Source: a virus
Taxonomy: Duplodnaviria > Heunggongvirae > Uroviricota > Caudoviricetes
Direction: 5' to 3' (one strand)
Length of the DNA: 64,000 nt
IMG/VR virus record: IMGVR_UViG_2909262264_000005
The stretch's first letter is position 1. Each line of letters begins with the position of its first letter. A program made the translations under genes and the position numbers. Shown piece by piece: positions 4,997 through 63,563 of the stretch. The notes beneath the pieces are model-generated. The model ran no database searches, had not been told where the DNA came from, and saw only the letters and a program-made list of their open reading frames with translations.

Positions 4997-5054
4997 CCCA
5001 CAAAAAAGCCCGCCTGAACCGGCGGGCTGTCATAACACTGTGTTACCTGGCTAA

Positions 5055-5654: not shown

Positions 5655-5721
5655 AATTACCTCTCGCTTTTCTGCAATAAAAAAGGCGCCATTTCTGGCG
5701 CCCGTATATGGGTTATAAAAT

Positions 5722-8700: not shown

Positions 8701-9117
8701 AACCAGCAGGCGGACTTCCGACGGATTCCGGTCCCCCTTTGAGGTGGTTTCCACCAGTGCCTGCACACCGAAGGTAAAGCGCAGACGGTCGATGTTTGCA
8801 GACGTGATGGTCCGGGTAATCGGCGTGTCGTACTTCACTTCCGTACCCAGCACCGTCTCGGAGCCGGAGGATTCAAATCCCTCCGGCGGTGTCTGCTCCT
8901 GCTCACCGGCCCGGAAAACCACCGTGACACCGGAGATATTGGTATTCCCCTCACTGTCCAGCACCGGCGTACTGTTCAGCAGCACGCTTTTTAATCCGTC
9001 CACCGGACCTTCAACCGGCCCTTCACTGATGGCGTCTATCACGCTCAGCATCTGGGATGATTTCAGGTTGTCCTTCGCTTCGCGCGGGGTATGCCCCTTA
9101 CTGCTGCCTTTACCCAT
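5722..9117 (-). CDS. Host specificity protein J (central tail fibre)
   Basis: 1131 aa; position and length as lambda gpJ; paralogue at 54314-57796. Confidence 0.9.
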
Positions 9118-9177
9118 TCGTCATGCTCCATAAACGATAAAACCGCCCGGAGGCGGTTTCACATAAAACGTTTTTCA

Positions 9178-9819
9178 TCAGCGACCAATCACCACAACCT
9201 GACCACCATCCCCTTCGTCTGCCGTGCTGATCTCCTGAGAGACCACCCGCGACCCCACGCGCATTTCACCGTACAGAACGGGCAGAACATTGCCCTGGGC
9301 AACCATATTATCCAGTGAAGAAAAATAGGTGTTCTGTTTGCCGTTATCCGTTGTCTGTGTGCGGGGGGTTTTGGGTTTAGGAGCCAGCATCTGTGCAACA
9401 CCGCCAAGCGTCATACTGGCACCGAGAGAAAAAAGCAGATTACTCGCCATTATTCCTACCCCCGGCATCCATATAGCAACCGCCATAACAGCAGCTCCCA
9501 GCACTGCCTGAAACACACCGCCACTTTTGGCTCCTGCCAGACGCGGCACGATGTGGATCACTGCTCCATTCGCCAGCGGTTCATTAAGACGGGCTGATAA
9601 TTCGTTTTCGCCTGCATCACGCCCGGCAATGCGCACCTGATACCAGCCGTCGCTCAGTTTCTGACGAAACGCCGGAAACTGCATAGCCAGCGCCCGGATG
9701 GCTTCGGCTCCCGTTTTCACACGCAGATCGATGCGGCGACCAAATCGTTGTAAATCCCCGTAAAGGCAGATGCGTGCCATGCCCGGTGACGCCAGAGGGA
9801 GTGTGTGCGTCGCTGCCAT
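9178..9819 (-). CDS. Tail assembly protein I
   Basis: MAATHTLPLASPGMARICLYGDLQRFGRRIDLRVKTGAEA... recognised as lambda gpI-like. Confidence 0.8.
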   Translation of the reverse strand: MAATHTLPLASPGMARICLYGDLQRFGRRIDLRVKTGAEAIRALAMQFPAFRQKLSDGWYQVRIAGRDAGENELSARLNEPLANGAVIHIVPRLAGAKSGGVFQAVLGAAVMAVAIWMPGVGIMASNLLFSLGASMTLGGVAQMLAPKPKTPRTQTTDNGKQNTYFSSLDNMVAQGNVLPVLYGEMRVGSRVVSQEISTADEGDGGQVVVIGR

Positions 9820-10460
9820 TTGTCGGTATACCTCTCTCGTTTGCTCAGTTGTTCAGGAATATGGTGCAGCAGCTCGCCGTCACCACAGTAAATGGCGGCA
9901 TGATTCGGCACCGATGAACCAAAACAGCACAACAGCACATCGCCCGGTTGTGCTGATGACAACGGCACCTGATACAGCCCCGTGGCCTCCAGATTATCCA
10001 GATAGAGATTCTGACCGTTACGCCACCAGTCATCCCCGCGATGAAAATCCGGCATCTCAATCCCCGCCAGATGATAAGCATCCCGGAACAGCGTGTAACA
10101 GTCCGTCACCCCGTGCTCAAAGCGTCGCCCGGTAAGATGCGGCACACTGCGAAATTTATGAATCTCACCCCGGCAGACCAGCCACCAAGGCAAATCGCTC
10201 TGCACCTGCAGCCGCCGGTCGGCCTCACTCAGCCAGGGCAGACCACCGGGGTGGCTGTGGACCAGCGCCACAATCTCACCCTGCATCTCTGCCCACAGCC
10301 AGTCCTCCGGCGACATCCGGAAATACGCCTCCGGCTCACCGGAGATATTCACGCAGGGAAAATATCTTTCCCCTTCCGGCGTTCTCACCACGAAGCCGCA
10401 CGACTCCGCTGGCGCACATCGCCGGGCGTGCGCCAGAATCGCTGATTCTGTCTGTGTCAT
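9717..10460 (-). CDS. Tail assembly protein K (NlpC/P60 and MPN/JAB-like domains)
   Basis: MTQTESAILAHARRCAPAESCGFVV... with HSHP motif; 3' end overlaps the gpI-like gene. Confidence 0.8.
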   Translation of the reverse strand: MTQTESAILAHARRCAPAESCGFVVRTPEGERYFPCVNISGEPEAYFRMSPEDWLWAEMQGEIVALVHSHPGGLPWLSEADRRLQVQSDLPWWLVCRGEIHKFRSVPHLTGRRFEHGVTDCYTLFRDAYHLAGIEMPDFHRGDDWWRNGQNLYLDNLEATGLYQVPLSSAQPGDVLLCCFGSSVPNHAAIYCGDGELLHHIPEQLSKRERYTDKWQRRTHSLWRHRAWHASAFTGIYNDLVAASICV

Positions 10461-10465
10461 GGGAT

Positions 10466-11164
10466 TTACTGCGAAAGTTTGTTAATGGAAAGGAAGCCGC
10501 CAAAGTTGCCGACGTTATTGCGAAACTTACAGCCACTCAGGCATTTGCTGCATTTATCCTTCGTGATATCGGACGTCGGCTGATCATATTCATCCGCGAC
10601 AGCCGGACCGTGATAACCGCACTCATCACCGCGATAGGTCCAGGTGCAGGTGTTGGCCAGCATGATGCGCCCCGGAAAAACAGCGCCATCCGTTTCCGTC
10701 GGCGTGGACAGTACAAAAGAAGCACTGACCGCGCTCAGTTCGCTGCACTGCTCGATGCGCCAGCGGCTGATCACCTCCTGCTCCGGGTCGGCGTCACTGT
10801 TCCCGTTGACGAAGTTCACCGCATCCAGAAAACGGGCGTAAACCTTACGCCGGACCACCGTTCCGCCGACCAGACTCTGCAGATCTTCCGCCATCCCGGT
10901 GACCATGCCGTGCAGATTAGAGACTTTCAGCGTTGGCCTTGCACTGGCTCCTTTGCCGTTCATCTCAAATCCACTTCCCTGAATGGGATAGGCCTGATAC
11001 TGCCGCCCCTGCCAGGTGACTGGTTCACCTTTTTCGTTCTGCTCATTACAGAAGAAATAACGATCTCCGCCGACCTCTGTCAGATCAATTTCCCAGAGCA
11101 CGACCAGCGCGGATTGCTCCGTTTTAGTGCACTCATTGAGTGTTTCCTGCTGTATATCCTGCAT
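10466..11164 (-). CDS. Minor tail protein L
   Basis: 232 aa, same length as lambda gpL; Cys-rich C-terminus. Confidence 0.8.
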   Translation of the reverse strand: MQDIQQETLNECTKTEQSALVVLWEIDLTEVGGDRYFFCNEQNEKGEPVTWQGRQYQAYPIQGSGFEMNGKGASARPTLKVSNLHGMVTGMAEDLQSLVGGTVVRRKVYARFLDAVNFVNGNSDADPEQEVISRWRIEQCSELSAVSASFVLSTPTETDGAVFPGRIMLANTCTWTYRGDECGYHGPAVADEYDQPTSDITKDKCSKCLSGCKFRNNVGNFGGFLSINKLSQ

Positions 11165-11520
11165 CAGTGAGTGACCTCTTCAAAGGTACAGTTAAAATCG
11201 GTATACATAGCATTATCCGAAATGCTCCACTCCCTGCAGACAACCCGGACAGTCCTGTTGTGTTTTGGCGGACGCCACAAAAAAGCACGAATCCCGGCAT
11301 GACGGGATAAAAAACTGTCCAGCGCGGCACGGGAATATTCATCTGTGACACGAAATACCGGTTTAAACGTTTTCAGATCCGCATTCAGACCACCAGCCCG
11401 TCGCTGTTCATATCCGTCACCAAACTTTACCGTAATAACTGATGGCTTTCGTGTCGTCTCCATCCCCTCACGGGGGATCCAGTTAAAAACTTCAGGCTCA
11501 GGCACTGTATAATCCTCCAT
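11164..11520 (-). CDS. Minor tail protein M
   Basis: Conserved FGDGYEQRRAGGLN motif; start set at the MEDYTV ATG (listed ORF extends to 11550). Confidence 0.65.
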   Translation of the reverse strand: MEDYTVPEPEVFNWIPREGMETTRKPSVITVKFGDGYEQRRAGGLNADLKTFKPVFRVTDEYSRAALDSFLSRHAGIRAFLWRPPKHNRTVRVVCREWSISDNAMYTDFNCTFEEVTH

Positions 11521-14500
11521 CCCGACGCGATGACTGCATAATTGACACAACCCTGCTGTCGATCAGATCCACCAGTCCCCTGGCTGAGCGCGCATCTATC
11601 TCGCCATTGCTCCCTTGATTCTGAATGCTGATGTGATACACGGGAGAATAAACAAATCCACCGCCACCATTCACATTGCCAATGGCTCTGACCCCAAGAG
11701 AGCCGTCCGCTGCCCGTGTCAGTGGCATGATAGCTTCAGGCCCGGCCTCGCCCATCAGCCCGGCACCTTTCGCAAAAGCAAAATACGTCGGTGTATCCAC
11801 AATAGTGTTACTGTAAGCACTCAGATTTGCCGATGTGTAAACACCACCTTTTGCGTTTGCCACCGCCCCCGAAATCCATCCGCCGACCGTACCAAGCCAC
11901 CCTCCGGCACCGGAGAGTGACTTCAGTCCGTTAACAATGGCCGCATTCATCAGAATTTTTGAAACTTCCCGGAGAACTGAACTCCCCCAGTTCCTCCACT
12001 CCACAACATTCCCGGCCAGTGCATCGGAAATATTTGATACCAGCCCGTCCATCGTGGAAACGACAGCATCTGCCGCCTGTGAAGCATAATCGGTGGCACT
12101 GTCTGCCCAGTTGGTCAGTCCCTCCTGGAGCCCGGCATTCCAGTTATTACGTAAAGCATCGGCCTTTGCATAATAATCCTGCTGATCGCTGAGACGCTCT
12201 TCCAGATATTTTTTATTCAGTTCTTTCTCCTGTTTCCACAGGGCTTCTTCAATTTCTCCGGCCTGATACTGTCTCAGCAGCTCGTTATTTTTCTGCTCAA
12301 ACGTCTGCCGGATACTCCACATTTCCTGGAGTCGTTCACGCATCCGTGAGCCTTCACCATATCCCAGCAACTGCGCGTCGTCAGATGCCCGGGCACTGGC
12401 ATTACTGTCCGCCAGACTGCTCTCATACGCAGCAAGCTGCTCACGAATCTTTTTCTGGTCGATGAGTGCTGCATTCTGCAAAAGCGTTTTTTTCTGCGCT
12501 TCTGACAGGGTTGATAATTCGCCCTGACTGACCTGATATTTCATCTTAGCCTGTTCAGTATTCTGCCCTGCCAGTGCTATCTGTTCTTTTTGCTGTTTAA
12601 TCAGTCGTTTATAAATATCCTCTGTTTTTTCCGCTTCGGTTTTTTTATGCGGTTTATTTGCCTGGTTATTTCGCCAGGCATCCAGTGAGTTATTGATATA
12701 ATTCTGTCTGGCTGTCTGATACGCCTCTCCCACAAAGCCGAGATCATCCGCAGCATAGCCCAGTCGGGCACGCTCACGCGCTTCCCCCTTAAGGCGGGAC
12801 AGAGCCAGTTCGCGCTTGCTGTTATTCAGTGCGGTCTGCTGTTTATCATCCAGGGTTGCCTGTGGTAGCCGTAACGGTACATTCACCAGCCCCTGCCGCT
12901 GCTGAAGTAATTCATTACCAAGCCCAAGAAGGCGATTAAACTCGGTATGCTGCCCATTCATGATCAACAGGGACTGATACGCTTTGTTTTGTTCCGCCGC
13001 CTGTTGACGGATCAACGCCACCCGTCGCTCCTCCAGCCCGGCAAGCACATCCTGAATGGATTGCGCTTTGCCCTGCATTTGAGTGAGGCGAGACTGTTCA
13101 ACTGCCAGTTGATTTGTTGCTTCTGCAAGCCCTTCTGTGACAGTTTTTACCGACGTCATGTGGTTAATCATAAAACCGTTATCGGTTGTCCAGCCCGGGT
13201 TTGCCAGCACATACTGATAGCCAGCAATTTTTTCCTGTAAGGATTTAATCTTACTTTTCTGCTCGTCAATTAACCTGTTCTGCTCTTTCAGTGCCTGTCG
13301 CGTCTTTTCCTCATTATCTGACGCTTCAGGAAGCGACATTGCCGACGTTTTCTGGCGAATTTCGTCGATTGTTGCGGCATACTGGCGTGCAGATTCTCTG
13401 GCCTGCTCCTGATTCTGATACATCGTGTACCAGGCCGCAGCCCCCAGCATGACGAGTCCCGGCACACCACCAACCAGCCCCAGCGCGCCACTTAATAAAC
13501 GACTCCCCACTGACGTAACATTATTCAGCGTTGTCTGTGCCGCTGTTCTGGCCGCAATATTACGGGTAAGTGACGCCTGGGCAGCTGTCAGCTTCGCTTC
13601 TGCTGCGGCCTGCCTTTCGGTACCGCGAGCAGCAACAACCGCCTGTTGCGCACGATAAACCGCCGCACGCGCCCTGGCAGTTGCTATCTGTGTCCCCCGA
13701 AGTTGCGCTTCAGCAAGAGACACTTCGTTTCTGGCCGCAGTGATTAGCCCGGCAGTTGCAGATCCAGCAGAAGATGCCATATTGCCAAAATACCGGGCTA
13801 CCCCGACGGCAACCAGTGCACCGGCAGCGGTTGCCACGGTGTCAATATTGCCTGCAAGACCATTCAGCACACCGGAGAGCGTCTTCGTCACTCCGCTTGC
13901 CTCGTTCGCACCACCAACCCAGGCCATAAAGGCATTTTCAACTTTGGTTGCAGAGGATGAAACCGTATCAGGCATTGCCGCATATTCATCACGTAATGCC
14001 CCAAGCTGACTAATCAGTGCAGGAACAACCTTATCGGCGGTCAGTTTTCCGTTATCCGCCATGGCCTTCAGATCCTTACGGGCAACGCCCATTCCCGCAG
14101 CCAGCGCGCGAATAACACGATCGCCGTTCTCATTCACCGAGTTAAATTCTTCACCGCGCAGCACTCCCTGCGCCAGTGCCTGACTGAACTGCGTGATCAC
14201 CGAACTGGCTTCTGCTGTACTGGCACCGGATAATTTCAGGCCCGTGGAGATCGCCTCGGTGACTTTCAGTACCTCCTCAGAACTGTAGCCATACTCCCGC
14301 ATGGAAGCTGCAGAGCGGGCAAAAAGGCTGGCGTTATCAGAAAAAGCCGTCCCCGTTCTCTGGCTGATTGCCATTAATTCACGTTGTGATGCCTGAAAAT
14401 CATCACTGGACTGTGAGGCCTGCTTCAGACGAGCATTGACTGAATTCCACTCATCGGCGAGAGAAATAAGATGACCGGTAGCAAAAGCCCCGGCAAATGC

Positions 14501-14725
14501 CCCCGCCATGTTCAGTGCCGAAGATTTAGCTGTATTTATCTGATCCGTCACTTCTGCCAGTGCACGCCGCATTTCACGGGATGCAGCAGCGGACTGTCGG
14601 CTTCCGTTCTGCATGGTGCGGTAGTAATCCTGCCCCATACGCGAAGCCCGGGAGATCTCTGACTGAAATGACCGGGAGTTTGCCGAAATTTTAATAATCA
14701 GTTCACGTAATGTCGCCACACTCAT
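11498..14725 (-). CDS. Tail tape measure protein H
   Basis: 1075 aa, coiled-coil-rich, in canonical position upstream of M/L/K/I/J. Confidence 0.85.
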   Translation of the reverse strand: MSVATLRELIIKISANSRSFQSEISRASRMGQDYYRTMQNGSRQSAAASREMRRALAEVTDQINTAKSSALNMAGAFAGAFATGHLISLADEWNSVNARLKQASQSSDDFQASQRELMAISQRTGTAFSDNASLFARSAASMREYGYSSEEVLKVTEAISTGLKLSGASTAEASSVITQFSQALAQGVLRGEEFNSVNENGDRVIRALAAGMGVARKDLKAMADNGKLTADKVVPALISQLGALRDEYAAMPDTVSSSATKVENAFMAWVGGANEASGVTKTLSGVLNGLAGNIDTVATAAGALVAVGVARYFGNMASSAGSATAGLITAARNEVSLAEAQLRGTQIATARARAAVYRAQQAVVAARGTERQAAAEAKLTAAQASLTRNIAARTAAQTTLNNVTSVGSRLLSGALGLVGGVPGLVMLGAAAWYTMYQNQEQARESARQYAATIDEIRQKTSAMSLPEASDNEEKTRQALKEQNRLIDEQKSKIKSLQEKIAGYQYVLANPGWTTDNGFMINHMTSVKTVTEGLAEATNQLAVEQSRLTQMQGKAQSIQDVLAGLEERRVALIRQQAAEQNKAYQSLLIMNGQHTEFNRLLGLGNELLQQRQGLVNVPLRLPQATLDDKQQTALNNSKRELALSRLKGEARERARLGYAADDLGFVGEAYQTARQNYINNSLDAWRNNQANKPHKKTEAEKTEDIYKRLIKQQKEQIALAGQNTEQAKMKYQVSQGELSTLSEAQKKTLLQNAALIDQKKIREQLAAYESSLADSNASARASDDAQLLGYGEGSRMRERLQEMWSIRQTFEQKNNELLRQYQAGEIEEALWKQEKELNKKYLEERLSDQQDYYAKADALRNNWNAGLQEGLTNWADSATDYASQAADAVVSTMDGLVSNISDALAGNVVEWRNWGSSVLREVSKILMNAAIVNGLKSLSGAGGWLGTVGGWISGAVANAKGGVYTSANLSAYSNTIVDTPTYFAFAKGAGLMGEAGPEAIMPLTRAADGSLGVRAIGNVNGGGGFVYSPVYHISIQNQGSNGEIDARSARGLVDLIDSRVVSIMQSSRRDGGLYSA

Positions 14726-26740: not shown

Positions 26741-26815
<75 letters not shown>

Positions 26816-27837
26816 ATACTGTACTGGCTTCCGGAATCACACGAATTACCAGGAAAGCCAGCACTGGTCCTTCAGACGATAGTAACGCCCCTGTGAACAC
26901 AAAAATAACCGTCTTCCGGACCAGTCAGAATACTAACGACAGTTTTTCAGACATCAAAAATATATTTGGTGTTCAGTTTTAAATATGTGTATACATATGT
27001 ATCAGAAATATACAACTTATATCATCACTGAATTAAAAATCTTTCGTTATTTCTCTGACCGTCTGATTAAAACGTTCCTCTTCCAGTTCCACGCCAATCG
27101 CCCTGCGTCCCAGCGACAGTGCCGCTTTTATTGTCGACCCCGACCCCATAAAAAAATCAGCAACCAAATCTCCCGGATGGCTGCTGGCGGTAATTATCTG
27201 ACGCAACATATCCGCCGGTTTCTCACAGGGATGTTTGCCGGGGTAATACTGCACAGGCCTGTGCGTCCAGACATCCGTATACGGAACAGCTGCCGATACG
27301 GAAAAATAACGCCGCAGGGATTTGTACTCTTCCAGCAGGCTGGCGTATTGACGGTTCAGTTCACTGTATGTGCTGACCAGCTGGTGGTGTGGCTTTTCCA
27401 GTTCCCCGCGCTGATGCTTTTCTGCTGCAACACGCGCAAACAATGCCTGCAGTTTTCTGTAATCAGCTTCGTTCGGTAACTGCCACTGACTGGCACCAAA
27501 CCAGTGCGAAGCCATATTTTTCTTTCCGGTGGCTTCCGCTATCTGTTTTGACGTTATTCCCAGTGATTCACGCGCATCACGAAAGTAAGAAATCAGCGGG
27601 GCCATGACGTGCTGTTTTAGCTCGCGCCCCTTTGCTGCAAAATGGCATCTAAATCGATCACGGTTTGGCATTCGAATCGATCATGATTTGGCATCCATCT
27701 CCGATCACAGTTTGGCATCACAATCGATCACGATTTGGCATGCTTCCGATCATTGATTGGCATCCTGCCAGTCACTCCGGGAATTAACTCTTTTCACCAC
27801 AGTCTTCATTGCCGTGTTTAAACCAGTGGAGACGGCA

Positions 27838-29403
27838 ATGTCCAGAAAGAGAAAATCCAGGAGCACTATGGAAACCTGTTTTAAGATCCTTCAGCTCAAG
27901 TTCGACCAGAAGCTGACTAACCGTTGTATCGGACTGACGTTACACATCAGCGCCTCAACCGTTTTTGAGGTTCTTGCACGCTTCAAAGCCTCTTCTCTGT
28001 CATGGCCATTACCTGCTGATATATCCCATGACACGCTGGAGAAACTCATTTACCCGCCCAAAGACACCTCTGCGTCAGAGCTTGTTATGCCTGACATGCT
28101 GTACTTCGATACGGAAATGAGAAAACCGGGCGTGACGCGCCAGCTGTTGTGGATGGAATACAAGGCACAGGCGAGTGACAAAGCGATGGGATACTCGCAC
28201 TTCTGCCGTTGCTACCGGGAGTGGAAAAAAACGCGACGCCTCTCCATGCGCCAGGAGCATCGTGCCGGCGAAAAGCTCTTTATCGACTTCTGCGGTCCTA
28301 CGGTTCCTGTTATTAATCCGGACACCGGAGAGATACGCCGCGTGGCAATCTTCGTGGCCGTGATGGGGGCATCCAACTATACCTACGTTGAAGCGTGCGA
28401 AGGTCAGGACATGATGTCATGGTTAAATGCCCACAGCCGTTGCCTGACCTTCCTGGGCGGCGTGCCGAAGCTGCTCATCCCCGATAATCTCAAAAGTGCA
28501 GTCAAAAAAGCCGATCGCTATGAGCCTGTCATCAACGACAGTTATCAGGCGCTGGCTGAGCACTATGGCACGGTTATTATCCCGGCCCGCCCGCGCAAAC
28601 CTAAAGATAAACCAAAAGCAGAAAACGGCGTCCTCATCGTCGAACGATGGCTTCTTGCCCGCATCCGTAATGAAACCTTCCACACGCTCAGGGCGCTGAA
28701 TGCGCGCCTTCGGGAGTTACTGACGGACATGAATAACCGGCCAATGAAGGGGTACGGCAATCAAACCCGTGCAGAACGCTTCCGCATGCTGGATGCGCCA
28801 GCACTCTCTCCGCTGCCTCTGGCACCTTATGAATACACGGAATACAAAGCCGTGAAGGTTGGCCCTGACTATCACGTTGAATATGCCCGTCACTGGTACT
28901 CCGTTCCACACGAACTGGTCGGTCAGCGTCTGTCACTGAAGGCGGGGCAGTCTGTGGTACAACTCTGGCACAAGGGGCAGTGTGTGGCGCAACATCCGCG
29001 CAGCACACATGAATATAAACACACAACCAATCCGCTTCACATGCCAGAGCGCCACCGGCAGCACGGGACATGGACACCGGAACGCCTGATCGAGCAGGGG
29101 AAACGTACGGGCCCGTCCACAGGCCGGGTGGTTGAATCCATGCTGAAGGCAAAACCCCATCCGGAACTGGCTTATCGTGCAGTTCTGGGGCTGCTGGCAC
29201 TTCAGAAAAAATACGGCCCGGAACGACTGGAAAAGGCCTGTTACGTTGCCCTGCACTATAACGCCCCTGACAGACGCTTTATCGACAATCTGCTGCGTCA
29301 CCATCGGGAGAACCTGGAGCTTCCATTATCCCGCCAGGGCGAACAACATCCGACATATGCTTCAGAGCATGAAAACCTGCGTGGTCCGGGCTACTACCAC
29401 TGA
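27838..29403 (+). CDS. istA: IS21-family transposase IstA
   Basis: N-terminal HTH then DDE-type core; GGAG RBS before ATG 27838 (listed ORF starts at 27757). Confidence 0.85.
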   Translation: MSRKRKSRSTMETCFKILQLKFDQKLTNRCIGLTLHISASTVFEVLARFKASSLSWPLPADISHDTLEKLIYPPKDTSASELVMPDMLYFDTEMRKPGVTRQLLWMEYKAQASDKAMGYSHFCRCYREWKKTRRLSMRQEHRAGEKLFIDFCGPTVPVINPDTGEIRRVAIFVAVMGASNYTYVEACEGQDMMSWLNAHSRCLTFLGGVPKLLIPDNLKSAVKKADRYEPVINDSYQALAEHYGTVIIPARPRKPKDKPKAENGVLIVERWLLARIRNETFHTLRALNARLRELLTDMNNRPMKGYGNQTRAERFRMLDAPALSPLPLAPYEYTEYKAVKVGPDYHVEYARHWYSVPHELVGQRLSLKAGQSVVQLWHKGQCVAQHPRSTHEYKHTTNPLHMPERHRQHGTWTPERLIEQGKRTGPSTGRVVESMLKAKPHPELAYRAVLGLLALQKKYGPERLEKACYVALHYNAPDRRFIDNLLRHHRENLELPLSRQGEQHPTYASEHENLRGPGYYH

Positions 29404-29419
29404 CAGAAGGAACAACAGT

Positions 29420-30175
29420 ATGAGTGATAACCTGTTAAACAAACTGACCCAACTGAAACTCCCGGCGATGGCCGGGAGCCTGATACGGCAGCGGGAAACG
29501 CCTCAGACCTACGACGAACTGTCGTTCGAGGAAAGGCTGACGCTGCTGGTTGATGACGAGCTTCTGAGCAGGGAAAACAGCCGTGTGGCACGGTTGAGAA
29601 AAAATGCCGGCCTGAAATACCAGGCAACACCGGAAGGGCTGCGCTATCCGGCCTCAAGAGGTCTGCGGGCTGAACAGATGAGAGAACTGCTGAACGGTCA
29701 CTACATAACCCACAGGAAAAACCTGCTGATAACCGGTCCGACAGGATGTGGCAAGAGCTGGATAGCCAATGCGCTGGGCGAACAGGCATGTCGACAGAAA
29801 CACAGCGTCCGGTACTGTAGAACCGGGCGATTACTGGAACAGCTGGCTCAGGGACGTGTTGATGGCAGCTGGCTGAAATATCTGAAACAGTTGCAAAAAA
29901 TACAGGTTCTAATCCTGGACGATCTGGGGCTGGAACAGTTAAGTAACGCCCAGTGTAATGACCTTCTGGAGCTCATAGAGGATCGTTACGGACAAAGCAG
30001 CACGATAGTGGTAAGCCAGTTCCCGGTAGATAAATGGCATGGTCTGATGGAAAACCCAACAACAGCAGATGCCATCCTGGACAGACTGGTACATAACTCA
30101 CACAGAGTGGTCCTTCAGGGAGAGTCCCTGAGGAAAAATCCCCCGACAGTGGAAAGCAGCGAAAAAACGAGTTAA
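29420..30175 (+). CDS. istB: IS21-family helper ATPase IstB
   Basis: Walker A GPTGCGKS and Walker B LILDDLG; start at the MSDNLLNKL ATG. Confidence 0.9.
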   Translation: MSDNLLNKLTQLKLPAMAGSLIRQRETPQTYDELSFEERLTLLVDDELLSRENSRVARLRKNAGLKYQATPEGLRYPASRGLRAEQMRELLNGHYITHRKNLLITGPTGCGKSWIANALGEQACRQKHSVRYCRTGRLLEQLAQGRVDGSWLKYLKQLQKIQVLILDDLGLEQLSNAQCNDLLELIEDRYGQSSTIVVSQFPVDKWHGLMENPTTADAILDRLVHNSHRVVLQGESLRKNPPTVESSEKTS

Positions 30176-30873
30176 AAAGCGATAGAAAAAGTTAAGTTCC
30201 CGGTTGATCGAATGTATGCGAATCGCTGATCGGACTTCGATGCCAATCCGTGATCGAATAGAGCGGAATACGCATTTGCCGCATAGCCGTCATTTTTGGG
30301 CTGGTATGGCCCCTGATAATGTTCGGCAAACAGAATGCGCTCTGTTGCCGGGAAATACGCCCGCAGGCTTTCCTTGTTGCATCCGTTCCAGCGTCCGGAC
30401 GGCTTCGCCCAGATAATGTGATTCAGCACATTAAAGCGTTCACGCATCATGATTTCGATATCAGATGCCAGGCGATGACCACAGAACAGGTAAAGACTTC
30501 CGGCAGGCTTCAGTACCCGCCAGAATTGCGCCAGACACTGGTCCAGCCATTTCAGGTAATCATCATCGCCCTTCCACTGGTTATCCCAGCCCTCGGGCTT
30601 CACTTTAAAGTATGGCGGGTCTGTGACTATCAGATCGACAGAATTTTCCGGTAAGGTCTGGATAAATTCCAGGCAATCAGCGTTGATTAACTCACAACTG
30701 GATATTTTTACAGTATTGGCCATAGATCAATAAGCACTTCTCTGATAGGCTCATACCGCTTTTGCGCAAAGCAGATGGGCCTGAGGTTTGCTTGTGACCC
30801 CAACGCATGAGCAGATGGCTGGCAGGTGCCGCTAACACCCACCAGCCGCCCATTACCACAAATTAAAAAGCCT

Positions 30874-31071: not shown

Positions 31072-31522
31072 GTCTTTTCCCTTTTCCGGTTAACGTGACA
31101 TACCAATAACTCTTGTCGAAAAAGCCAGCAAGCTGAAAGACCAGTATTCGCAACCACCAGCGCGTTTAACGTACTGCGCCGCTTTTCGGGCATAAAAAAC
31201 CCCGTTTGGCGGCTGGTTTAAGCTGTGCGGCAAAGTGACCACTCTTAACATCATATTTAAATTTTTACGTACGTAAACCAGCACGCAAAAAATTTACATT
31301 ATAAAATACAAAAACAATAACTTTTCATTACATTTCAGAAGCGCATCTCTCATTACAAAAACATCGTCAATAATTACCAGTACGCATAAACGAGATCTTG
31401 ATCACACTTTGAACCATTAAATAAACTCCATATCTTGAAATAGCCATACCGATTAGATGTATATTTAGGCCGCAGTGACAATATTTTTTAATAATAGTTC
31501 CGAAAAGGACTAAGGATTCACG

Positions 31523-32620
31523 ATGAAAAAATTAACAGTGGCAATCTCTGCTGTAGCTGCGTCAGTATTAATGGCGATGTCTGCTCAAGCAGCAGAGATT
31601 TATAACAAAGACAGCAACAAACTGGATCTGTACGGAAAAGTTAATGCCGAGCACTACTTCTCCTCTAACGATAAACACGATGGTGACAAAACTTATGCTC
31701 GTCTGGGCTTCAAAGGCGAAACCCAAATCAATGATCAACTGACTGGTTTCGGTCAGTGGGAATATGAATTCAAAGGCAACCGTGCTGAATCTCAAGGTTC
31801 TTCCGGGGATAAAACTCGCCTTGCATTCGCTGGCCTGAAATTCGGTGACTACGGCTCCATCGATTATGGCCGTAACTACGGTGTAGCATACGACATCGGT
31901 GCGTGGACTAACGTTTTGCCAGAATTCGGTGGTGATACTTGGACTCAAACCGACGTATTCATGACTCAGCGTGCAACTGGTGTTGCAACTTACCGTAATA
32001 ACGACTTCTTCGGTCTGGTTGATGGTCTGAACTTTGCTGCTCAGTACCAAGGCAAAAACGATCGTAGCGATCTCGATAACTATACCGAAGGTAACGGTGA
32101 TGGCTTCGGTTTCTCTGCTACCTATGAATACGAAGGATTCGGTATTGGTGCAACTTATGCGAAATCTGACCGTACCGACACTCAAGTTAATCTAGGGAAA
32201 GTTCTTCCTGGAGTATTTGCTTCCGGTAAAAATGCAGAAGTTTGGGCCGCAGGTCTGAAATATGACGCTAACAACATTTACCTGGCCACTACCTATTCTG
32301 AAACCCAGAATATGACTGTATTTGCTGATCACTTCGTTGCTAATAAAGCCCAAAACTTCGAAGCTGTTGCACAATATCAGTTCGATTTCGGTCTGCGTCC
32401 GTCCGTGGCTTACCTGCAATCTAAAGGTAAAGATCTCGGAGTATGGGGCGATCAAGACTTAGTTAAATATGTTGATGTAGGCGCAACCTATTACTTCAAC
32501 AAAAATATGTCTACTTTCGTTGATTACAAAATCAACCTGCTTGACAAAAATGATTTCACCAGAGGTCTTGATATAAACACCGACGATATTGTTGCTGTCG
32601 GTATGGTTTACCAGTTCTAA
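31523..32620 (+). CDS. nmpC: Prophage-encoded general porin, OmpC family (NmpC/Lc type)
   Basis: 365 aa with signal peptide; recognised as near-identical to DLP12 NmpC / phage PA-2 Lc; C-terminal ...[11 protein letters not shown]...VYQF; opposite in orientation to the late operon. Confidence 0.85.
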
Positions 32621-32642
32621 ATCTTTTTATTAAAAAAGATAT

Positions 32643-32786
32643 GTTGCGGGAGATATTTATCTCCCACAACATGTGGGTGACGCCCTCACGTCACTGCATT
32701 AAGAAAGACATTTTGTCTTTTCTTTTTAACCTTCTGTTATTTATTACTCTAAACTCTTGGGGGCGTTTTTGCGTCCCCTTTTTTAT
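32643..32786 (+). ncRNA. Structured 3' region downstream of porin (IpeX-like sRNA candidate)
   Basis: Hairpins at 32643-32670 and 32677-32694 plus a terminator-like hairpin with U-run at 32759-32786. Confidence 0.35.
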
Positions 32787-32809
32787 TCAATTTTACCAGC
32801 AAACGTTAA

Positions 32810-33193
32810 TCAATAACATCTAACAACTTCAAGATCCATCTCGAGACGAACATCCAGTGCCATCAACATTCCGTCGACTATTCCTTCAGCCTTCTGAAGT
32901 TTTTTTCCTATATATCCATCAGAACAATGATGCTTACGGGCCAGTGCCATAAACGTCATACCAGCCACATAATAATCTACCAGCAAATCATGCAAATCAC
33001 TGTTGTTCTTTTTCAAACGAGCCATGCATCCGCAAATGATCATTGCGTCATCATCACTACATTGCGGTCGCGATTTAACCTTTGAAGGAATAAGTCCCTT
33101 GAATCCGGCTGCAATCGATGACCAGGTGACATCCTCATGATTATTTGCCACCCATGCCCCCCAACGCTCAAGAACCATCTGAATATCACGCAT
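32810..33193 (-). CDS. Late-gene antiterminator Q (QuuD/YbcQ-like)
   Basis: 127 aa [31 protein letters not shown]... recognised as DLP12 Q homologue; sits between replication genes and late region. Confidence 0.8.
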
Positions 33194-49598: not shown

Positions 49599-49600
49599 GC

Positions 49601-50185
49601 TTACACGGTGTCTGGTTCTTCTGGCCACTCAATATCCGGTGCAGTTGATGTATCAACACGGTTCAGCAACACCCGATACTTTTTCCAGGCTTCCAGCAAT
49701 GAGGTTTCTTCCTCCGTTGCGATTTCCAGATCTACAGCATCCTGAAGTGGCGCAATATGCTCACTGGCTACCTGCATCAGGCTGTTTTTTGTTTCTTCCG
49801 CCTCTCGGATCCGGAACAGTTTTTCTGCTTCTGCATCTTTCACCCAGGCTGTGCCGTTCCACTTCTGAAACTCCCCTTCCGGCGATAACCAGGTAACATT
49901 TTCCGGTAACGGACCGAGTTCAGAAATAAATAACGCGTCCCCTGACGCTACGTCATAAACCGTTTTACCCCGATGGTCTTCATCGAGATGCCACGATGCC
50001 TTATCACTGTTGAAAACAGCCACAAAGCCAGCAGGAATATCTGGTGGTGCAATATCGGTACTGTTTGCTGGCAGACCTGTATGAGGCGGAATATATGCGT
50101 CACCTTCACCAATAAATTCATTAGTTCCGGCCAGCAGATTATAAATTTTTATGGTCCGTGGTTGTTCACTCATTCTGAATGCCAT
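49601..50185 (-). CDS. Tail fibre assembly protein (Tfa)
   Basis: ~96% identical to the prophage A copy. Confidence 0.8.
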
Positions 50186-53100
50186 TATGCAAGCCTCACA
50201 ATATAGTTAAATGCGATGTTTTTGACGGTGTTTTCCGCGTTACCAGCAGCGTTAACGGTGATGGTGTGTCCATGTGAACCAATCGCAACGGAGTGCGTAT
50301 GAGCACCAATACCGACAGTATGCGCGTGTGCACCTGCAGATGCTGCTGTGCCGGACAGTGAATGGCTATGATTACCATCTGTACTGGTATTCGCTAACCA
50401 CCCCGTAGACATACCTACTGAGCCTTGTACACCCCAGGTATTTTGACCTGAGCTTGTATAACCATATTGATAAGTATCTTTAAAAACACTGGGGTTAAAT
50501 CGACGGCCATCTCTATGGCTGTGATTACCAGCTGCATTCGTGCTGCCACTTAAACTATGGGTATGCGCACCAGTGTTATTCGTGGATTTAGTGCCGTAAT
50601 CAAACGACGATGTGGTTTTCGTCCCCAAATCCGTACTGGATGCGCTGGCGCTGTGGGTATGCGATTTAATGCCATCCTGTTCCTGAGACAATACGGCACG
50701 ACCACTGGCGGGCTTGCCCTTAATCGTCCAGCCACGCAAATCAGGGATCACGCCTGACGGATAAGCGGCAGCAAGTTTCGGGTAGGCAGATTTGTCAAAA
50801 GTCTGCCCCTGCATCAGGGCATAACCAGACGGAACGGTATCTGATGGCCACGGGATTGGTGCGCCGACTGGGTAGCTTTCTGGTGGAAGATTTTTCGAGG
50901 TATAAACTTCTGCCCAGTCTTCCTCAAAACCATAGCCATCTCTTGAAGAACGGTAGAACAGACCACCATTTCTGTAATGCGCCTTCATCTGCAGGGTCCG
51001 GCAACTTCCGACTCCGGTATAGAAGTTAACCAGAATATAGCTGTCGCCAGAGCGGGTGACATTGTAAGCGCCTGATTCGGCATTCCAGGGAACGCCACCA
51101 TCCGCATCGGCATATGTATCCGTTGCCCTTCTGGCAAAAGCAGCCACATGCGCGGCGGTTAAAGTAATATCTTTGGAACCATCAAACTCAACACCAGAAA
51201 CCAGTCTTGGCGTTTGCAGCTTTGTTGCTGTTAATGCATTACCGTTCAGACTTGCGGACAGTTTGGTTCCAATAACCAGTTCGCCGGTTGCGTTATCAAT
51301 AGCAAACGGTCTTAATGTATTCCAGCCACCATAAACATCACCTTGATTGGTAAGCAGCAGGTAAGTTTTAGCGCCATCATTACGCCATAATGCCCCATAC
51401 TCCCCACCTATCATTCGAATCTGATTACCACCACGCGCTACAATTTCGTCTGTGGCAAAAAGTTTTTTGCACGACAAGTTATCGTTAACGATTAACGAAT
51501 GAGACTCATAAAAACCACGCCCACTCTTAAAATCAAGGATAACGTCCGCCGCGATACATTCAGTCGCCGGATTTGTTGCCCCAAACTTATAGGTCGTATC
51601 ATTAACAACGAGATCAGCACCAGGTGCGGATATTGACAGGCCATCTTCGATAAACGCAAAAACAGGGAAAGCAGCGCCATCAACATAGAACACAGAGCGC
51701 AAATCATCGCCCTTATTACTCATCATTATTGAGTGGATGGCTCGTTCATTGTTTTGATATTGCCAGAACATTCCATAAGCATAACGCCCCCTGTCAGTCC
51801 AGCCACCAGGCATAACAAATCCGTTAAACTCGCAGTTATTCATCGGATCGCCTGCGGTTCGCGGTGCCGTGGTGATAATGACCCTTGATGCCAGTTCGCT
51901 TACTGAGCCAGCAGAACGCATAACAACAACAGGGTAATATTTTCCAGATGTTGCACCTGCAGGAGCGTTAACCCGCACATAACGCATACCACGCTTATCA
52001 GCAAAGTCTGTTTTACTGACCGCGTTAATGTTGTTCAGGAAGCGTCCCTTATCGGGTATATCAGCGCCGTTCTGGTCTTTCTGCAGACGTTTCTCTGCAT
52101 TGTCATAGGCTGATTTTACTGCCTTTGGCGTTGCCGCCAGCGTTTCAGACGTACTGTTGGTCGCACTGCTGAGCTGTACTATCCCCTTTTTCGTCGTACT
52201 TGCATCCTCAAGCGCCACGGCGGATGCAATATCCTCTGCCCGTTTAGCTGCTGTCTCGGCGCGCGTTGCCGCGGATTCCGCCGTACTTTTGCTCTGTGCT
52301 GCCGCCGTCGCACTGCCAGCTGCCTCTGTCGCCTTCGTGGATGCTGTCGTGGCGCTGCCCTTCGCTGCTGACGCCTGTCTGGTCGCCTCATCTTTTGAAG
52401 CAGACGCCGATGATGCCGATGACGCCGCCGAACTGGCGGACGATGCGGCAGCCGTTTTTGAGGATTCTGCGCTGGTTTCCGACGCTTTCGCGTTCGTCTC
52501 GGATGTCTTCGCTGCGGAAGCAGACCTCGCTGCTGCACTGGCCTGTTCAGTGGCTTCGCCAGCCTTCGTTGTGGCTGTTGAAGCGGACGATGCGGCGCTT
52601 TCTGCCGATTTTCCGGCGGCGCTAGCACTGGCTGAGGCCTGCCCGGCACTTGTTGACGCGGCACTGGCAGATGATGCAGCCGCTGTTTTTGAGCCTGCCG
52701 CAGCTGAGGCACTCTGTCCCGCTGCCGTTTCAGAAGACTTAGCGTTCGTCTCGGACGTTTTTGCCGCCTTCGCAGAATTTGCTGCCGCCGTTGCCGAGGA
52801 AGCGGCACTACTGGCGCTTGATGATGCGTTCGTTTCTGATGATTTCGCTGCCTCTTTTGAGGCCGCCGCATCCCGGGCTGAGGTGGCAGCTTCTGACGCC
52901 TTCGTGGTCGCGGCGGATGCAGAAGTGGCTGCAGATTTTTGTGACGCTGCCGCATTCGTTTCTGACGTTTTCGCGGCACTGGCACTGGTAGCTGCCGCGC
53001 TTTTTGAGGACTCTGCAGCAGCAGCACTTTTCGATGCTTCAGTGGCCTTTGTTGATGCCGTTCCTGCGCTGGAAGACGCCTCCTGAGCCGAAGTCGCGGC

Positions 53101-53589
53101 CTGTCCGGCTGACGTGCTGGCTGCACGCGCTGAGCCTGCAGCATCAGTCGCATGGGTTGCCGCCTCACGGGCAGATGTGCCGGCATCGCCGGCTGACTTC
53201 TTCGCGGCTGCCGTGTTCTGTGCCACCGCGGACGCGTTACGCGCCACCTCTTCCACCATCAGTTCAAAACGGCGCAGAGCCTCCGGACGGGCATCATCCT
53301 CCGTCATGGCACCGAGAAAATCATTCAGCGTACCGGGTCGGGAATCTTCATACACGGTGATGGTCCCGGCATGTGACGGCGGGAATCCTTCCACCAACAG
53401 AATAACGCTGTACTGACCGTACTCAACGTCCATGCTGTAACGCCCGGCTTCATCCGGATTTTCTGAGGCCAGCGTGTTCACCACCACCGTGGTGCTGTTA
53501 CGTTTTGCTTTCAGCTGGATTGTGCAGTTCTGTACCGGTTTTCCTGTGCCGTCTTTCAGTACACCTGAAATCTTTACTGCCATATTCAC
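50185..53589 (-). CDS. Side tail fibre protein
   Basis: 1134 aa; shares N-terminal Ala-rich rod and C-terminal His-rich region with the prophage A fibre but has a different central segment. Confidence 0.85.
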
Positions 53590-53647
53590 CCCACAAAAAA
53601 GCCCGCCTGAACCGGCGGGCTGTCATAACACTGTGTTACCTGGCTAA

Positions 53648-54247
53648 TCAGAATTTATAACCGACACCCACGATGAAACCGTCAGTGCGCCAGTCGCCAC
53701 TGCCGGAGCCTTCATAAGCAATATCAATGGCCACGGATTCGGTCGGGTTAAACTGCACGCCAGCTCCCCACGCCAGAGACGTGTTGCTGTGGCGACCGTC
53801 ATCACTTCCGGTCAGCACGTCGTGCGTTTTCCCCTTGTTGTCAGTTACGCGGAGATAATCCCCGGAGAAAGTCGACACACGGCTGTAAGCCACGCCTGCC
53901 ATCGCATACGCGCTGAACCATTCATTCACGCGTACAGACGGCCCCGCCATCACGCTGAACCAGCGGTTACGCACGGAATCTTCATGCCAGCGGGTATCGC
54001 TGTAATGGGTCAGCTGGCGATTCTTGTCTCCTGCATAGCTGAACGACGTCACCATCCCCAGTGTGTCCGTAAACTCATAACGGTATTTCACGTTAATCCC
54101 GTTCAGATCATCACTGCCGGGAACGTTCGTCCGGGCATGAAGATACCCCGCGCTCAGCGTGGACTGATGTTCAGACGCCCATGCAGGCGCACCGGATACG
54201 GCCAGACAAATGGCTGCGGACAAAATGGCGGCATAAAGTTTACGCAT
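53648..54247 (-). CDS. lom: Lom-like outer-membrane protein
   Basis: 199-aa paralogue of the prophage A Lom. Confidence 0.8.
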   Translation of the reverse strand: MRKLYAAILSAAICLAVSGAPAWASEHQSTLSAGYLHARTNVPGSDDLNGINVKYRYEFTDTLGMVTSFSYAGDKNRQLTHYSDTRWHEDSVRNRWFSVMAGPSVRVNEWFSAYAMAGVAYSRVSTFSGDYLRVTDNKGKTHDVLTGSDDGRHSNTSLAWGAGVQFNPTESVAIDIAYEGSGSGDWRTDGFIVGVGYKF

Positions 54248-54313
54248 AATTACCTCTCGCTTTTCTGCAATAAAAAAGGCGTCATTTCTGACGCCCGTTC
54301 TGGGTTATAAAAT

Positions 54314-57300
54314 TCAGCTGATACTGATACCTGCTGTGGATTTTTTCATCACCACAACCAGCAGATCGCTGATACTGGTTGTTGGTGTCCAGTTATTCGC
54401 TCCTGATGAAGATACGGTGAATGTCAGTGTCAGCGTCCCCTGTCCGGCAGGCATATCTATAACTGAGGAAAATACGCCCTGAGCATCCGTCGTGGACTGA
54501 TTAAAAATCTCCTGACCATTGCGGGTCACTCTTAACCGGCAGGTTGAATACCAGTATGACTGTTGGTTATTACTGTTGAAATTCTCATGCTTACCACCGC
54601 GGAATAACACTGGCGGTATCATGACCTGCCGGTCAAATTTCTGATCATCACTGATTCTTACCGTGATGGTGCCACTGGCATAACTGTTCGTGCGGGGGAA
54701 AGACTTGCTGACCGTTTTGACAATATCGCCTTCAATCTGATTGGCTGACAGTTTCCCCTTAATCTGACAGTTCTCATTAATCGTGACATTGTTGAGCGTC
54801 CCGGAGTTCGCATTCACACTGCCACTGATATCCGCATTTTTAGCAGTCAGCTTTCCGTCCGGTGTCAGGGAAAATGCCGGAGGATTACCGCCGCTGGTAA
54901 TGGTGGGAGCCGTCAGATATTTCAGGAACACTTCATTCATGAATATCTGATCGCCCTGACCAACAAACATCGGCTTTGTGTTGCCATTCGCAGGATTAAT
55001 CATCGCAATCCTGTCTGCCGCCAGCAGCACCTGACTCTGCATGCCGTCGGGGGTGTTCTCAATACCGGCACCGATACCCGCAATATAAAGGCGTCCGTCC
55101 TGCATCTGCTGCAGCTTCACTGCCCACATGCTGTTCAGGTTATTATTTGTATCAACCTGAACCTTCTGTATCTGCTGGATCGCTGCACTCTGGTCTTCCA
55201 GTTTCTTATTGACGGTCTGTGTTATTTCATTGCTGACATCCGTTATGGACGTCCTGATTTCAGTCAGGTCAGGCGCAAGCTGACCGTTATCAATCTGCGT
55301 CCACAGCTCCTGAGCCAGATGGGTTTTCCCTATCTCGCCTTTGAAAAAATCCAGATAGCCTGATGCATCATCACTCGGCTGACCGACAGCCTCCACGAAT
55401 GCCGATTTGCCAACGGTGTTCACACTGCGAACGTAAAAATAATAATCATGGCCCGGTTTGATATTGATACTGGCGGCTATCCAGTACAGCGCCGTACCAA
55501 GATAACGCGCGCTGGTTTCAACCTGCCTGATATCGGCAATCCGCGTTTCCGAGAACCAGAACTCAAACTGTACCGTCGGATCATAAACGGCAAGATGCGG
55601 TATGGCGGTTATCTGAAAATAGCCCGGCGTCAGCTCAATCCGCGACGGTGCTGCCGGTGCGGCAATCCGGAACGATACCGACGCCGGATCGCCCTGCTGT
55701 CCCCACGCATTTACCGCCCGGACCGTCAGCGTGTAACGCCCCAGCGCCAGTTGCCTGAAGCGGTATGTGGTTTCCGTCGTCCGGGCCGTGCTGACCAGCC
55801 GCTCACTGCCGTCATCCGCTGTTACGGTCAGACGGAGCAGGAAGCTCACGCCCTTCACCACCTTCGGCGTGTCCCAGCGCGCCAGCACCTGGTATTCCCC
55901 GCTGTCTGCGGTGACTTCTGCGGTCAGGTGCTGCACTGCTGGCGGCGTGACACCATTCACCGTGCCGCTCTGGTCGCCGTCAAAGTGCGCCCCGTTATCC
56001 ACGATGGCCTCTTTCTCCGGCACATGCTGCACAGCGGTGATGGCATACGTGCCGTCGTCATTCTCACGGATACTCACGCAGCGGAACAGGCGCTGGCGCA
56101 GCGTCGGCAGCTTCAGCCCCCACACGCTGTACTCGGCAACGCCGTCAGGAACACGGCTCACTTTCACCTTCACGCCGTCGGTGACGGACTGGACCTCCAC
56201 GCTGACCGGATTGCCACTTCCGTCAACCAGGCTTATCAGCGTGGTACCGGAGGATGGCAGCGTGATTTCACGGTCGAGCGTCAGCGTCCGGGTCTGGCTG
56301 TTCACCGCCAGCACGCGCCCGCCGGTGCTGATACCGGCATAGTCATCATCACAGATTTCAATGACATCGCCCGGTACATGGCGAAGCCCTTCGGCACCCA
56401 CGCTGAAGTCCACGGTCTGCGTCTCCAGCAGCTCCGTTTTAATCAGCCACAGCCCGGCTCGGTGTGCCTGCCCCCGGCTGGTACAACCAAAGGCATCCAT
56501 CTTCGTGACATTACGACCGTAACGGGCAATGGCCTGCGTGTCCTCCACAAGCTCTGTCGCCGTCTCCCAGCCGTTGTTCGGGTCAATCCAGTTCACCTCA
56601 ACGGCATTATGGCGGTCTTTCAGGGCGCTGAAGCTGTAGCGGAACGGCGCGCCATCATCCGGCATCACCACATTACTGCGGTTATAGGTCCACACCTTAT
56701 CCGACGGTCGGTCCTGCACGAACGTCAGCGTCTGCCCGTTCCATACCGGCATACAGCGCATCGCCGAGCAGAAATCACTGAGCACATCCCACGCCTTGCG
56801 CTGTGTGGTCAGCCAGGCATTACAGGTGATGCGCGGCTCCGTGCCGCCAAAGCCGTCCGGCACCGACTGGTCGCAGTACTGGCCGATGACATACAGCGCC
56901 CATTTATCCACATCCGCCGCACCAAGACGTTTCCCCATGCCGTAGCGCGGATGGGTCAGCATATCCCACAGACACCAGGCCATGTTGTTGCTGTATGCCG
57001 GTTTAAACGTTCCGTCCCAGATACCGCTGTATTGCCGCGTCTGCGGGTTATAATTCGACGGCACCTGCAGAATACGCCCGCGCAGATGATAATTACGGCT
57101 CACCTGCTGGCTGCCGAACTGCTCCGAGTCCACCTGCACGCCGACCAGTGCCGTGTTCGGGTAGCACTGTTTCACATCGATAATTTCGGTGTATGACGAC
57201 CAGAGCGTTTTGTTCTGCAGCTGGTCTGTGGTGCTGTCCGGCGTCATCCTGCGCATCCGGATACTGAACGGGCGCGGCGGCAGGTTATCCACCACCACCG

Positions 57301-57796
57301 AGGCCAGATACTGTGAAGTGGTTTTACCCTTAATGGTGATGTCTTTTTCCGTCACCCAGCCACCGTTACGCTGAATCTGAACCAGCAGGCGGACTTCCGA
57401 CGGATTCCGGTCACCCTTTGAGGTGGTTTCCACCAGTGCCTGCACACCGAAGGTAAAGCGCAGACGGTCGATGTTTGCAGACGTGATGGTCCGGGTGATC
57501 GGCGTGTCGTATTTCACTTCCGTACCCAGCACCGTCTCGGAACCGGAGGATTCAAATCCCTCCGGCGGTGTCTGCTCCTGCTCACCTGCCCGGAACACCA
57601 CCGTGACACCGGAGATGTTGGTATTCCCCTCACTGTCCAGCACCGGTGTACTGTTCAGCAGCACGCTTTTTAATCCATCCACCGGACCTTCAATCGGCCC
57701 TTCGCTGATGGCATCGATCACACTCAGCAACTGCGTGGATTTCAGGTTATCCTTCGCTTCGCGCGGGGTATGCCCCTTACTGCTGCCTTTACCCAT
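54314..57796 (-). CDS. Host specificity protein J
   Basis: 1160 aa; first ~830 residues near-identical to prophage A J, C-terminal region divergent. Confidence 0.9.
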
Positions 57797-57856
57797 TCGT
57801 CATGCTCCATAAACGACAAAACCGCCCGGAGGCGGTTTCACATAAAACATTTTGCA

Positions 57857-59145: not shown

Positions 59146-59150
59146 GGGAT

Positions 59151-59852: not shown

Positions 59853-59858
59853 GGCCTC

Positions 59859-63292: not shown

Positions 63293-63563
63293 GATGCATC
63301 AGTTCTTCGTCCGTTCGCTCCGGTATCCCGTTCTCTTCCGGTAAAAGGCTGAAATCAGCCACCGCAGCATCACTGCTGCCGGACACCATTCTCACGATCA
63401 ATGCCTTCAGCGAGGCAAACTGCGCATCCATCCACACATCACTGAAGCTCTGCATCCGGAAATAATCGCCCCACTCACCAAGCTCAGTGGCCGACATTTC
63501 CGACAGCATCCGCCGCCAGTCTGCCCGCCGGAACTCCCGGGCAAGCCGCATGACAAACTGCAT
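63234..63563 (-). CDS. Tail assembly chaperone T portion (G-T frameshift product)
   Basis: In -1 frame relative to G; continuous with G via slip at ccg gaa aag. Confidence 0.55.
   Translation of the reverse strand: MQFVMRLAREFRRADWRRMLSEMSATELGEWGDYFRMQSFSDVWMDAQFASLKALIVRMVSGSSDAAVADFSLLPEENGIPERTDEELMHLGEGISGGVRYGPDSQPGH

Follow-up and report, generated by a model that had tools for sequence, protein, structure and literature searches.

To determine whether a prophage porin gene is accompanied by a regulatory RNA directed against the porins of its host, we analysed a 64,000-nt viral sequence (IMG/VR record IMGVR_UViG_2909262264_000005; hereafter, the window), in which an OmpC-like reading frame is followed by a short, hairpin-rich 3' region. 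A preliminary description, made from the letters of the window alone, had compared this region with its equivalent in the DLP12 prophage, which it held to yield the porin-repressing RNA IpeX. This agrees with the literature, where IpeX is a 167-nt DLP12 RNA with published trans activity as a repressor of OmpC and OmpF, which originates from the porin promoter as a part of the porin transcript and is processed afterwards (PMC12197685, PMC5069750, PMC7177473). Our analyses favour, with a probability of about three in four, a lysogenic-conversion cassette of the PA-2 lc / DLP12 nmpC-ipeX type, whose IpeX-like 3' RNA would repress host porins by means of an unpaired block at 32726-32750.

The 365-aa open reading frame at 31523-32620 (plus strand, stop codon included) covers the whole of the Pfam family Porin_1 (1-337 of 337 positions, E = 2.9e-154), and in a protein alignment its product shares 95% identity with the Lc porin of phage PA-2, which is of equal length (365 aa). 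The complete OmpC-family porin that had been claimed for this locus is therefore present. In NCBIfam, the protein passes the cutoff of the 'porin OmpC' subfamily and does not reach the equivalog cutoffs of PhoE and OmpF, and its sequence identity is 78% with the OmpD-like S. arizonae porin and 66% with E. coli OmpC; by these identities and cutoffs, it stands nearer to the Lc/NmpC/OmpD type than to OmpC, OmpF, or PhoE. The signal peptide, the PEFGGD motif of loop 3, and the C-terminal YQF are all intact, and the substitutions that distinguish the protein from Lc fall partly in those segments that are most variable among the aligned porins. The nearest DNA matches of the gene are 11 E. coli chromosomes (97.5-98.8% identity), its identity to lc of PA-2 and to related phage genes being ~89%, and at every such matching locus the porin gene faces a gene for the antiterminator Q. 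Judged by the Pfam and NCBIfam matches and by the alignment with Lc, the frame is an intact general porin gene of the Lc/NmpC type.

In the window, the Q gene resides at 32810-33193 on the minus strand (Pfam PF06530, E = 4.1e-54), convergent with the porin gene, and its product is ~80-91% identical to Q of porin-carrying and Stx phages. The minus strand also carries the replication genes upstream of Q and, downstream, those for lysis, head, and tail; the porin gene, on the plus strand, is indeed opposite to Q and to the late and structural genes, as had been described. A promoter scan and homology further identified, at 31190-31277 on the minus strand, the late promoter pR' (31277-31250), which points away from the porin promoter, together with a qut-like leader and a U-run. 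Read from pR' on, TTTACG-16-TATGAT is followed by AAGAGTGGTCACTTTGCC... and then by the U-run. This segment is clearly homologous to the sequence annotated in VT1-Sakai as 'putative late promoter / Q-utilization / terminator', as well as to the K-12 DLP12 sequence directly upstream of essD. An alternative placement of pR', qut, and tR' on the minus strand of the 189-nt spacer between Q and the porin gene was rejected, because the sequences that follow Q in VT1-Sakai and Shigella 75/02 do not align with it. By these homologies, the porin cassette is located between Q and pR', convergent with the former and divergent from the latter, so that late transcripts starting at pR' would not cross the porin gene.

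From about -150, the sequence that precedes the porin gene is conserved in lc and nmpC, and the window sequence upstream of about -90 is unrelated to PA-2 and K-12. A probable porin promoter region, TTGAAA ... TATATT (31435-31465, plus strand), is common to lc and nmpC and near-invariant in a five-allele alignment, and a scan for consensus promoters gave no site in this interval that matched 9 or more of the 12 positions. Moreover, a candidate CRP-like site, CGAGA-N6-TCACA (31391-31406, plus strand), corresponds in the alignment to the CRP site annotated in PA-2 (J02580, 1363-1383), and in the UMNF18 and SE11 alleles it takes the form of a perfect TGTGA-N6-TCACA. From the conservation with lc and nmpC, and from the CRP-like site, we infer that the cassette has a promoter of its own; its terminator is clear.

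Several further features of the window were observed around this locus. The hairpin equivalent to tR', which reads CCCGC...GCGGG in K-12 DLP12 and VT1-Sakai, is degenerate at 31165-31245 (minus strand; CCAGCCGCCAAACGGGG), and this segment folds without a terminator stem beside the U-run and no better than shuffles (z = -0.36), so that the leader terminator of the late operon may be weak in this prophage. An IS21-family element of ~2.6 kb (27640-30274), with an IstA-like ORF at 27757-29403 and an IstB-like ORF at 29177-30175, is inserted in a phage DNA methyltransferase gene, of which a remnant lies at 30172-30723 (minus strand) and the other part is matched by 27031-27639; compared with the prophage of strain 504838 (L003), which has no such interruption, ~9 bp are duplicated. 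Since the insertion separates the lysis genes from pR', it may exert a polar effect on late expression. The methylase is followed downstream by a single tRNA gene, Gly-tcc (26741-26815), in the window and by four (Ile, Arg, Thr, and Gly; L003 3976-4286) in the closely related 504838 prophage, the segment with the other three being replaced in the window. At the left end, the tmRNA gene ssrA (698-1060; tag ANDENYALAA) borders on the prophage at its tail-fibre end, a position that suggests integration by ssrA. The J-like tail-tip protein (5722-9117, minus strand) is 52.6% identical to lambda J in its C-terminal 190 aa, and several Stx2a-converting and ECOR-derived phages, in which the receptor is not annotated, have a J that matches the same 190 aa at 96-99% identity. 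A second lambdoid tail gene set (~49600-64000, minus strand), comprising two J-like ORFs (1134 and 1160 aa), the small ORFs of the tail tip, and a tape-measure-like ORF of 1034 aa, mirrors the tail module of the first prophage at 2162-14725, which suggests that the first prophage is adjoined by another one or by a duplicate tail region.

The IpeX-homologous 3' untranslated region, as delimited by homology and fold, follows the porin stop codon and extends over 164 nt to the last base of a terminator U-run (32621-32784, plus strand). The sequence 32621-32786 folds into four hairpins, with the U-run at the end, and its minimum free energy is -54.7 kcal/mol, compared with -28.0 +/- 3.5 kcal/mol in 200 dinucleotide shuffles, none of which is as good (z = -7.7). 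The first hairpin, H1 (32639-32674), has a 14-bp stem; the second, H2 (32676-32695, plus strand), presents an anti-Shine-Dalgarno-like loop, CCCUCA; the third, H3, follows at 32701-32724 (plus strand); and the last, H4, with its U6 (32759-32784, stem 32759-32778, plus strand), is the Rho-independent terminator of the porin/IpeX transcript, by intrinsic terminator call and fold. The expectation of several stable hairpins and a terminator within ~170 nt is thus confirmed, and the end coordinate of 32790 given with it needs to be moved by a few bases only, to 32784, where the T-run of the terminator stops.

We then compared this region with IpeX. The spacer between Q and the porin gene and the quuD-nmpC spacer of K-12 MG1655 are equal in length (189 nt each). 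In a blastn comparison, the 3' region is 73% identical over 186 nt to PA-2, phage 434, further phages that carry the porin, and DLP12-type sequences (E = 1e-15), and its global identity to the K-12 ipeX region is 65-69%. The preliminary description had proposed a resemblance to IpeX, to be checked by alignment; the region is syntenic with, and homologous to, the DLP12 nmpC-quuD spacer and has retained all four hairpins, and the proposal holds in the form of a diverged allele. The RefSeq annotation of MG1655 contains no ipeX, and a search of Rfam 15 returned only a weak, terminator-like match to IsrM for the window region, the authentic K-12 locus being likewise without a match, which indicates that Rfam 15 has no IpeX model.

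In 80 viral contigs, 80 genomes at species level, and a number of phage and E. coli records, we found 23 distinct versions of the 3' region; these form two types, one common (that of DLP12 and PA-2) and one rare (that of the window). Of 5426 complete E. coli genomes, 2498, or about half, contain the 3' region, and 14 carry the window-type allele (at least 80% identity); none of 30 sampled E. coli matches has an annotated feature at this place. In the search of a panel of 80 other species, IpeX-like 3' regions beside porin genes were restricted to E. coli and E. albertii. By sequence comparison, the 3' region of the window is a rare and diverged allele of the known IpeX module.

The divergence between alleles allowed us to examine which parts of the region are maintained. 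Each of the 12 distinct variants that were folded forms all four hairpins, and in the columns reliably aligned by MAFFT, 99.4% of the paired cells can pair, compared with 39-64% in slid controls. The inner H1 stem and H3 were misaligned by MAFFT, owing to indels, and each hairpin was therefore folded separately for comparison. In H2, three of the seven pairs show double-sided changes (GC<->AU, CG<->UA, and UA<->GC), and its loop is identical in 11 of the 12 variants (CCCTCA, with CCCTTA in E. albertii as the exception). The inner H1 stem varies among AT/AT, GC/GC, and GT/AC, and the H3 stem is wholly rewritten relative to the DLP12-type allele, yet a hairpin remains at the same spot in every variant. 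Furthermore, the G-U pairs of H2 and H4 favour the plus-strand RNA. These compensatory changes back a conserved structure; coming from two allele families with a few sub-variants, they are modest evidence, supportive rather than conclusive.

Between H3 and the terminator lies the block 32726-32750 (TTAACCTTCTGTTATTTATTACTCT, plus strand), which is largely unpaired in the ensemble. The longest invariant run in the 12 variants, AACCTTCTGTTAT (13 nt), is followed by one variable base and then by TATTAC. By its invariance, its fold, and its complementarity, the block is a candidate seed for the translation-initiation regions of ompC and ompF. With the MG1655 leaders, it is predicted to form (i) 15 contiguous pairs with ompC (UUAACCUUCUGUUAU with AUAACAGAGGGUUAA), covering the Shine-Dalgarno sequence, and (ii) 16 contiguous pairs with ompF (UGUUAUUUAUUACUCU with AGGGUAAUAAAUAAUG), reaching from the Shine-Dalgarno sequence to the AUG. 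Moreover, an unbiased blastn search of the 3' region against the species-panel loci returned an antisense match at the start of ompC-like genes.

Pairing energies were estimated by a windowed hybridisation scan with accessibility penalties over 41 translation-initiation regions; these, together with 79 scorable loci of the species panel, form a small background for the energies. Plain RNAduplex had been tried and rejected, as whole molecules gave loop-ridden full-length duplexes and short regions were dominated by GC-rich stems. For the window RNA, ompC ranked first (-15.3 kcal/mol) and ompF second (-13.4 kcal/mol), with the next best region at -6.9 kcal/mol and the median of the 41 regions at -3.1 kcal/mol. 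The same two regions ranked first and second for K-12 IpeX (-12.2 and -10.3 kcal/mol, respectively), the next best being at -8.3 kcal/mol and the median at -1.2 kcal/mol. The values for the window RNA and K-12 IpeX, respectively, were -5.9 and -4.1 kcal/mol with lamB, -4.2 and -2.7 kcal/mol with ompA, -2.3 and 0.7 kcal/mol with ompX, and -0.2 and -1.8 kcal/mol with the leader of the phage porin itself. No dinucleotide shuffle of the window RNA attained the ompC or the ompF value (0/150; z = -5.7 and -4.4, respectively). Among the shuffles of K-12 IpeX, 3/150 and 4/150 attained the ompC and ompF values, respectively, and 0/150 attained both at once. Across the species panel, 27 true OmpC orthologues, in which the initiation region ...AACAGAGGGTTAATAA is conserved, scored -13 to -17 kcal/mol, and 36 Lc/OmpD-like porin genes, which typically read ...TTATAAGGATTATTTA..., had a median of -0.6 kcal/mol.

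The 2006 abstract of Castillo-Keller reportedly states that the ompC untranslated region has no complementarity to IpeX, that the effect of IpeX is Hfq-independent on ompC and Hfq-dependent on ompF, and that OmpA is unaffected. The pairing predicted by our energy model agrees with the reported IpeX targets and contradicts the published statement on complementarity; a long duplex with ompC might plausibly need no Hfq. In the reviews, IpeX is described as acting without base pairing to ompC/ompF mRNA, or as not reliant on complementarity alone (PMC3617542, PMC12197685), and in one of them it is termed Hfq-independent (PMC8313858). Because of this clash, we present the pairing as an inferred mechanism and put it at roughly even odds that IpeX-type RNAs would be classical antisense regulators, in which one block serves ompC and ompF in two overlapping registers and spares the OmpD-type leader of the phage porin.

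A different mode of action, which we consider possible if rather doubtful, is that the 3' RNA represses host porins without pairing, through titration of a factor or by a structure-dependent or envelope-stress route, the complementarity being a coincidence or the relic of an inverted leader. This would accord with the reviews that deny base pairing and call the ompC effect Hfq-independent, and the likeness of the minus strand of the block to a fused ompF/ompC leader could reflect ancestry rather than function. However, the complementarity sits exactly on the ribosome-binding sites and in the sole long accessible segment of the RNA, and the block is invariant between alleles that are ~30% different elsewhere. 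The predicted energies, moreover, exceed those of 150/150 shuffles and pick both reported targets while sparing ompA and the phage porin.

It appears improbable to us that the 3' region comprises only convergent terminators or insulators (H4 for the porin transcript and H1 for that of Q), with no RNA acting in trans and a likeness to IpeX that is a matter of ancestry. Both terminators are, indeed, recognisable. H4 terminates on the plus strand; H1 was called a terminator of the minus strand, where its stem is followed by a T-run with a ATCTTTTTTA tail, and the plus-strand sequence AAGATATGTTG, which flanks H1 and is the source of this T-run, is invariant in 12/12 variants. An internal C-A mismatch of the window H1 on the plus strand is a G-U pair on the minus strand, on which the hairpin is better paired, and this fits H1 also serving the Q transcript. 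The whole region folds with similar strength on both strands (z = -7.7 and -6.6), and hairpins, being palindromic DNA, could act as convergent terminators and nothing more. H1 probably doubles as the minus-strand terminator of the convergent Q (early-right) transcript, and the Q-porin spacer holds two convergent terminators, each beyond the other, so that the porin and Q transcripts would overlap by ~140 nt. Terminators by themselves nevertheless leave unexplained (i) H2 and H3 and the invariant H2 loop and (ii) the invariant unpaired block of 13 nt and 6 nt, with a complementarity specific to ompC and ompF, and the homologous DLP12 region has published trans activity. As a separate observation, the block reads AGAGUAAUAAAUAACAGAAGGUUAA on the minus strand, at the 3' end of the Q transcript, and is there a near-copy of the ribosome-binding regions of ompF and ompC, fused; a Q transcript that reaches H1 would bear a decoy of the proposed IpeX targets, as well as full complementarity to the IpeX-like RNA.

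Finally, it is scarcely credible that 32641-32823 codes for a small protein, be it the ATG-initiated 60-aa ORF present on the plus strand or an antisense ORF like the 'ORF1' of PA-2 and 434 (annotated as ORF1 or 'hypothetical protein' on the minus strand in J02580 and phage 434), and we rejected this reading because the frame is not conserved, being broken by indels of 1-3 nt between alleles, with the same ATG running 26 codons to a stop in the K-12 allele, the minus-strand ATG after a Shine-Dalgarno-like motif opening only 6 codons in the window, and the substitutions being stem-compensatory, not codon-like.

In the lysogenic-conversion cassette that we favour, the porin mRNA would stop ~164 nt past the stop codon, at the Rho-independent terminator, and the IpeX-like RNA, by analogy with the IpeX literature, would be made within the porin transcript, processed, and lower OmpC and OmpF. 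Repression would then proceed by pairing of the block 32726-32750 with the Shine-Dalgarno sequence of ompC (15 pairs) or the Shine-Dalgarno-to-AUG segment of ompF (16 pairs), which would block ribosome binding, and the A/U-rich stretch, the terminator hairpin, and the U-tail would constitute an Hfq-binding module. Since the leader of the phage porin lacks the complementarity, the net effect in the lysogen would be the replacement of host porins by the phage porin. The exchange of host outer-membrane porins by a prophage is a known lysogenic conversion that affects permeability, antibiotic entry, and phage receptors. Here, the comparison of two alleles exposes the constraint on four hairpins and on one unpaired block complementary to the ompC and ompF ribosome-binding sites, and the candidate seed suggests a concrete mechanism for an sRNA whose mode of action has been called unexplained since 2006. 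If the prediction is true, direct pairing would be the means by which the phage exchanges the porins of its host for its own, and the textbook view of IpeX would be contradicted.

In comparison with known systems, the window RNA most resembles DLP12 ipeX and the 3' end of PA-2 lc, with which it shares (i) its location immediately behind a porin gene of the Lc/NmpC type, convergent with Q in a 189-nt spacer, and (ii) its four hairpins, terminator, invariant unpaired block, and H2 loop. Likewise, the porin of the window has the length (365 aa), signal peptide, L3 motif, and C-terminus of PA-2 Lc and DLP12 NmpC, and the proximal promoter and CRP-like site are kept. Unlike DLP12 ipeX, to which it is ~65-73% identical, the window RNA has rewritten inner H1, H2, and H3 stems and differs in its first ~15 nt; it is predicted to pair more strongly with ompC and ompF than K-12 IpeX does, with 16 contiguous pairs to ompF as against 10+6 with a mismatch in K-12; and the porin gene is intact in the window, whereas that of K-12 DLP12 is broken by IS5.

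The window RNA also shares with MicF, MicC, and the 3'-UTR-derived Hfq sRNAs a proposed accessible seed for the ribosome-binding region of porin mRNAs and an A/U-rich stretch that precedes the terminator hairpin and U-tail. In contrast to MicF and MicC, to which it has no sequence homology, it would use a single block for two targets in overlapping registers and would come from the 3' end of the prophage mRNA of a competing porin, and published work denies the pairing. A further parallel is StxS, the short pR'-tR' transcript of Stx phages that acts as an sRNA (PMC7547250): it, too, is a prophage RNA from the neighbourhood of Q and the late promoter, with a related Q protein. However, StxS derives from the pR' leader, on the late strand, whereas the IpeX-like RNA of the window lies on the opposite strand, 3' of the porin gene, and the pR' leader of the window is a separate element (31277-31190). 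The cassette is a known kind of element, of which the window carries an intact and unusually diverged copy.
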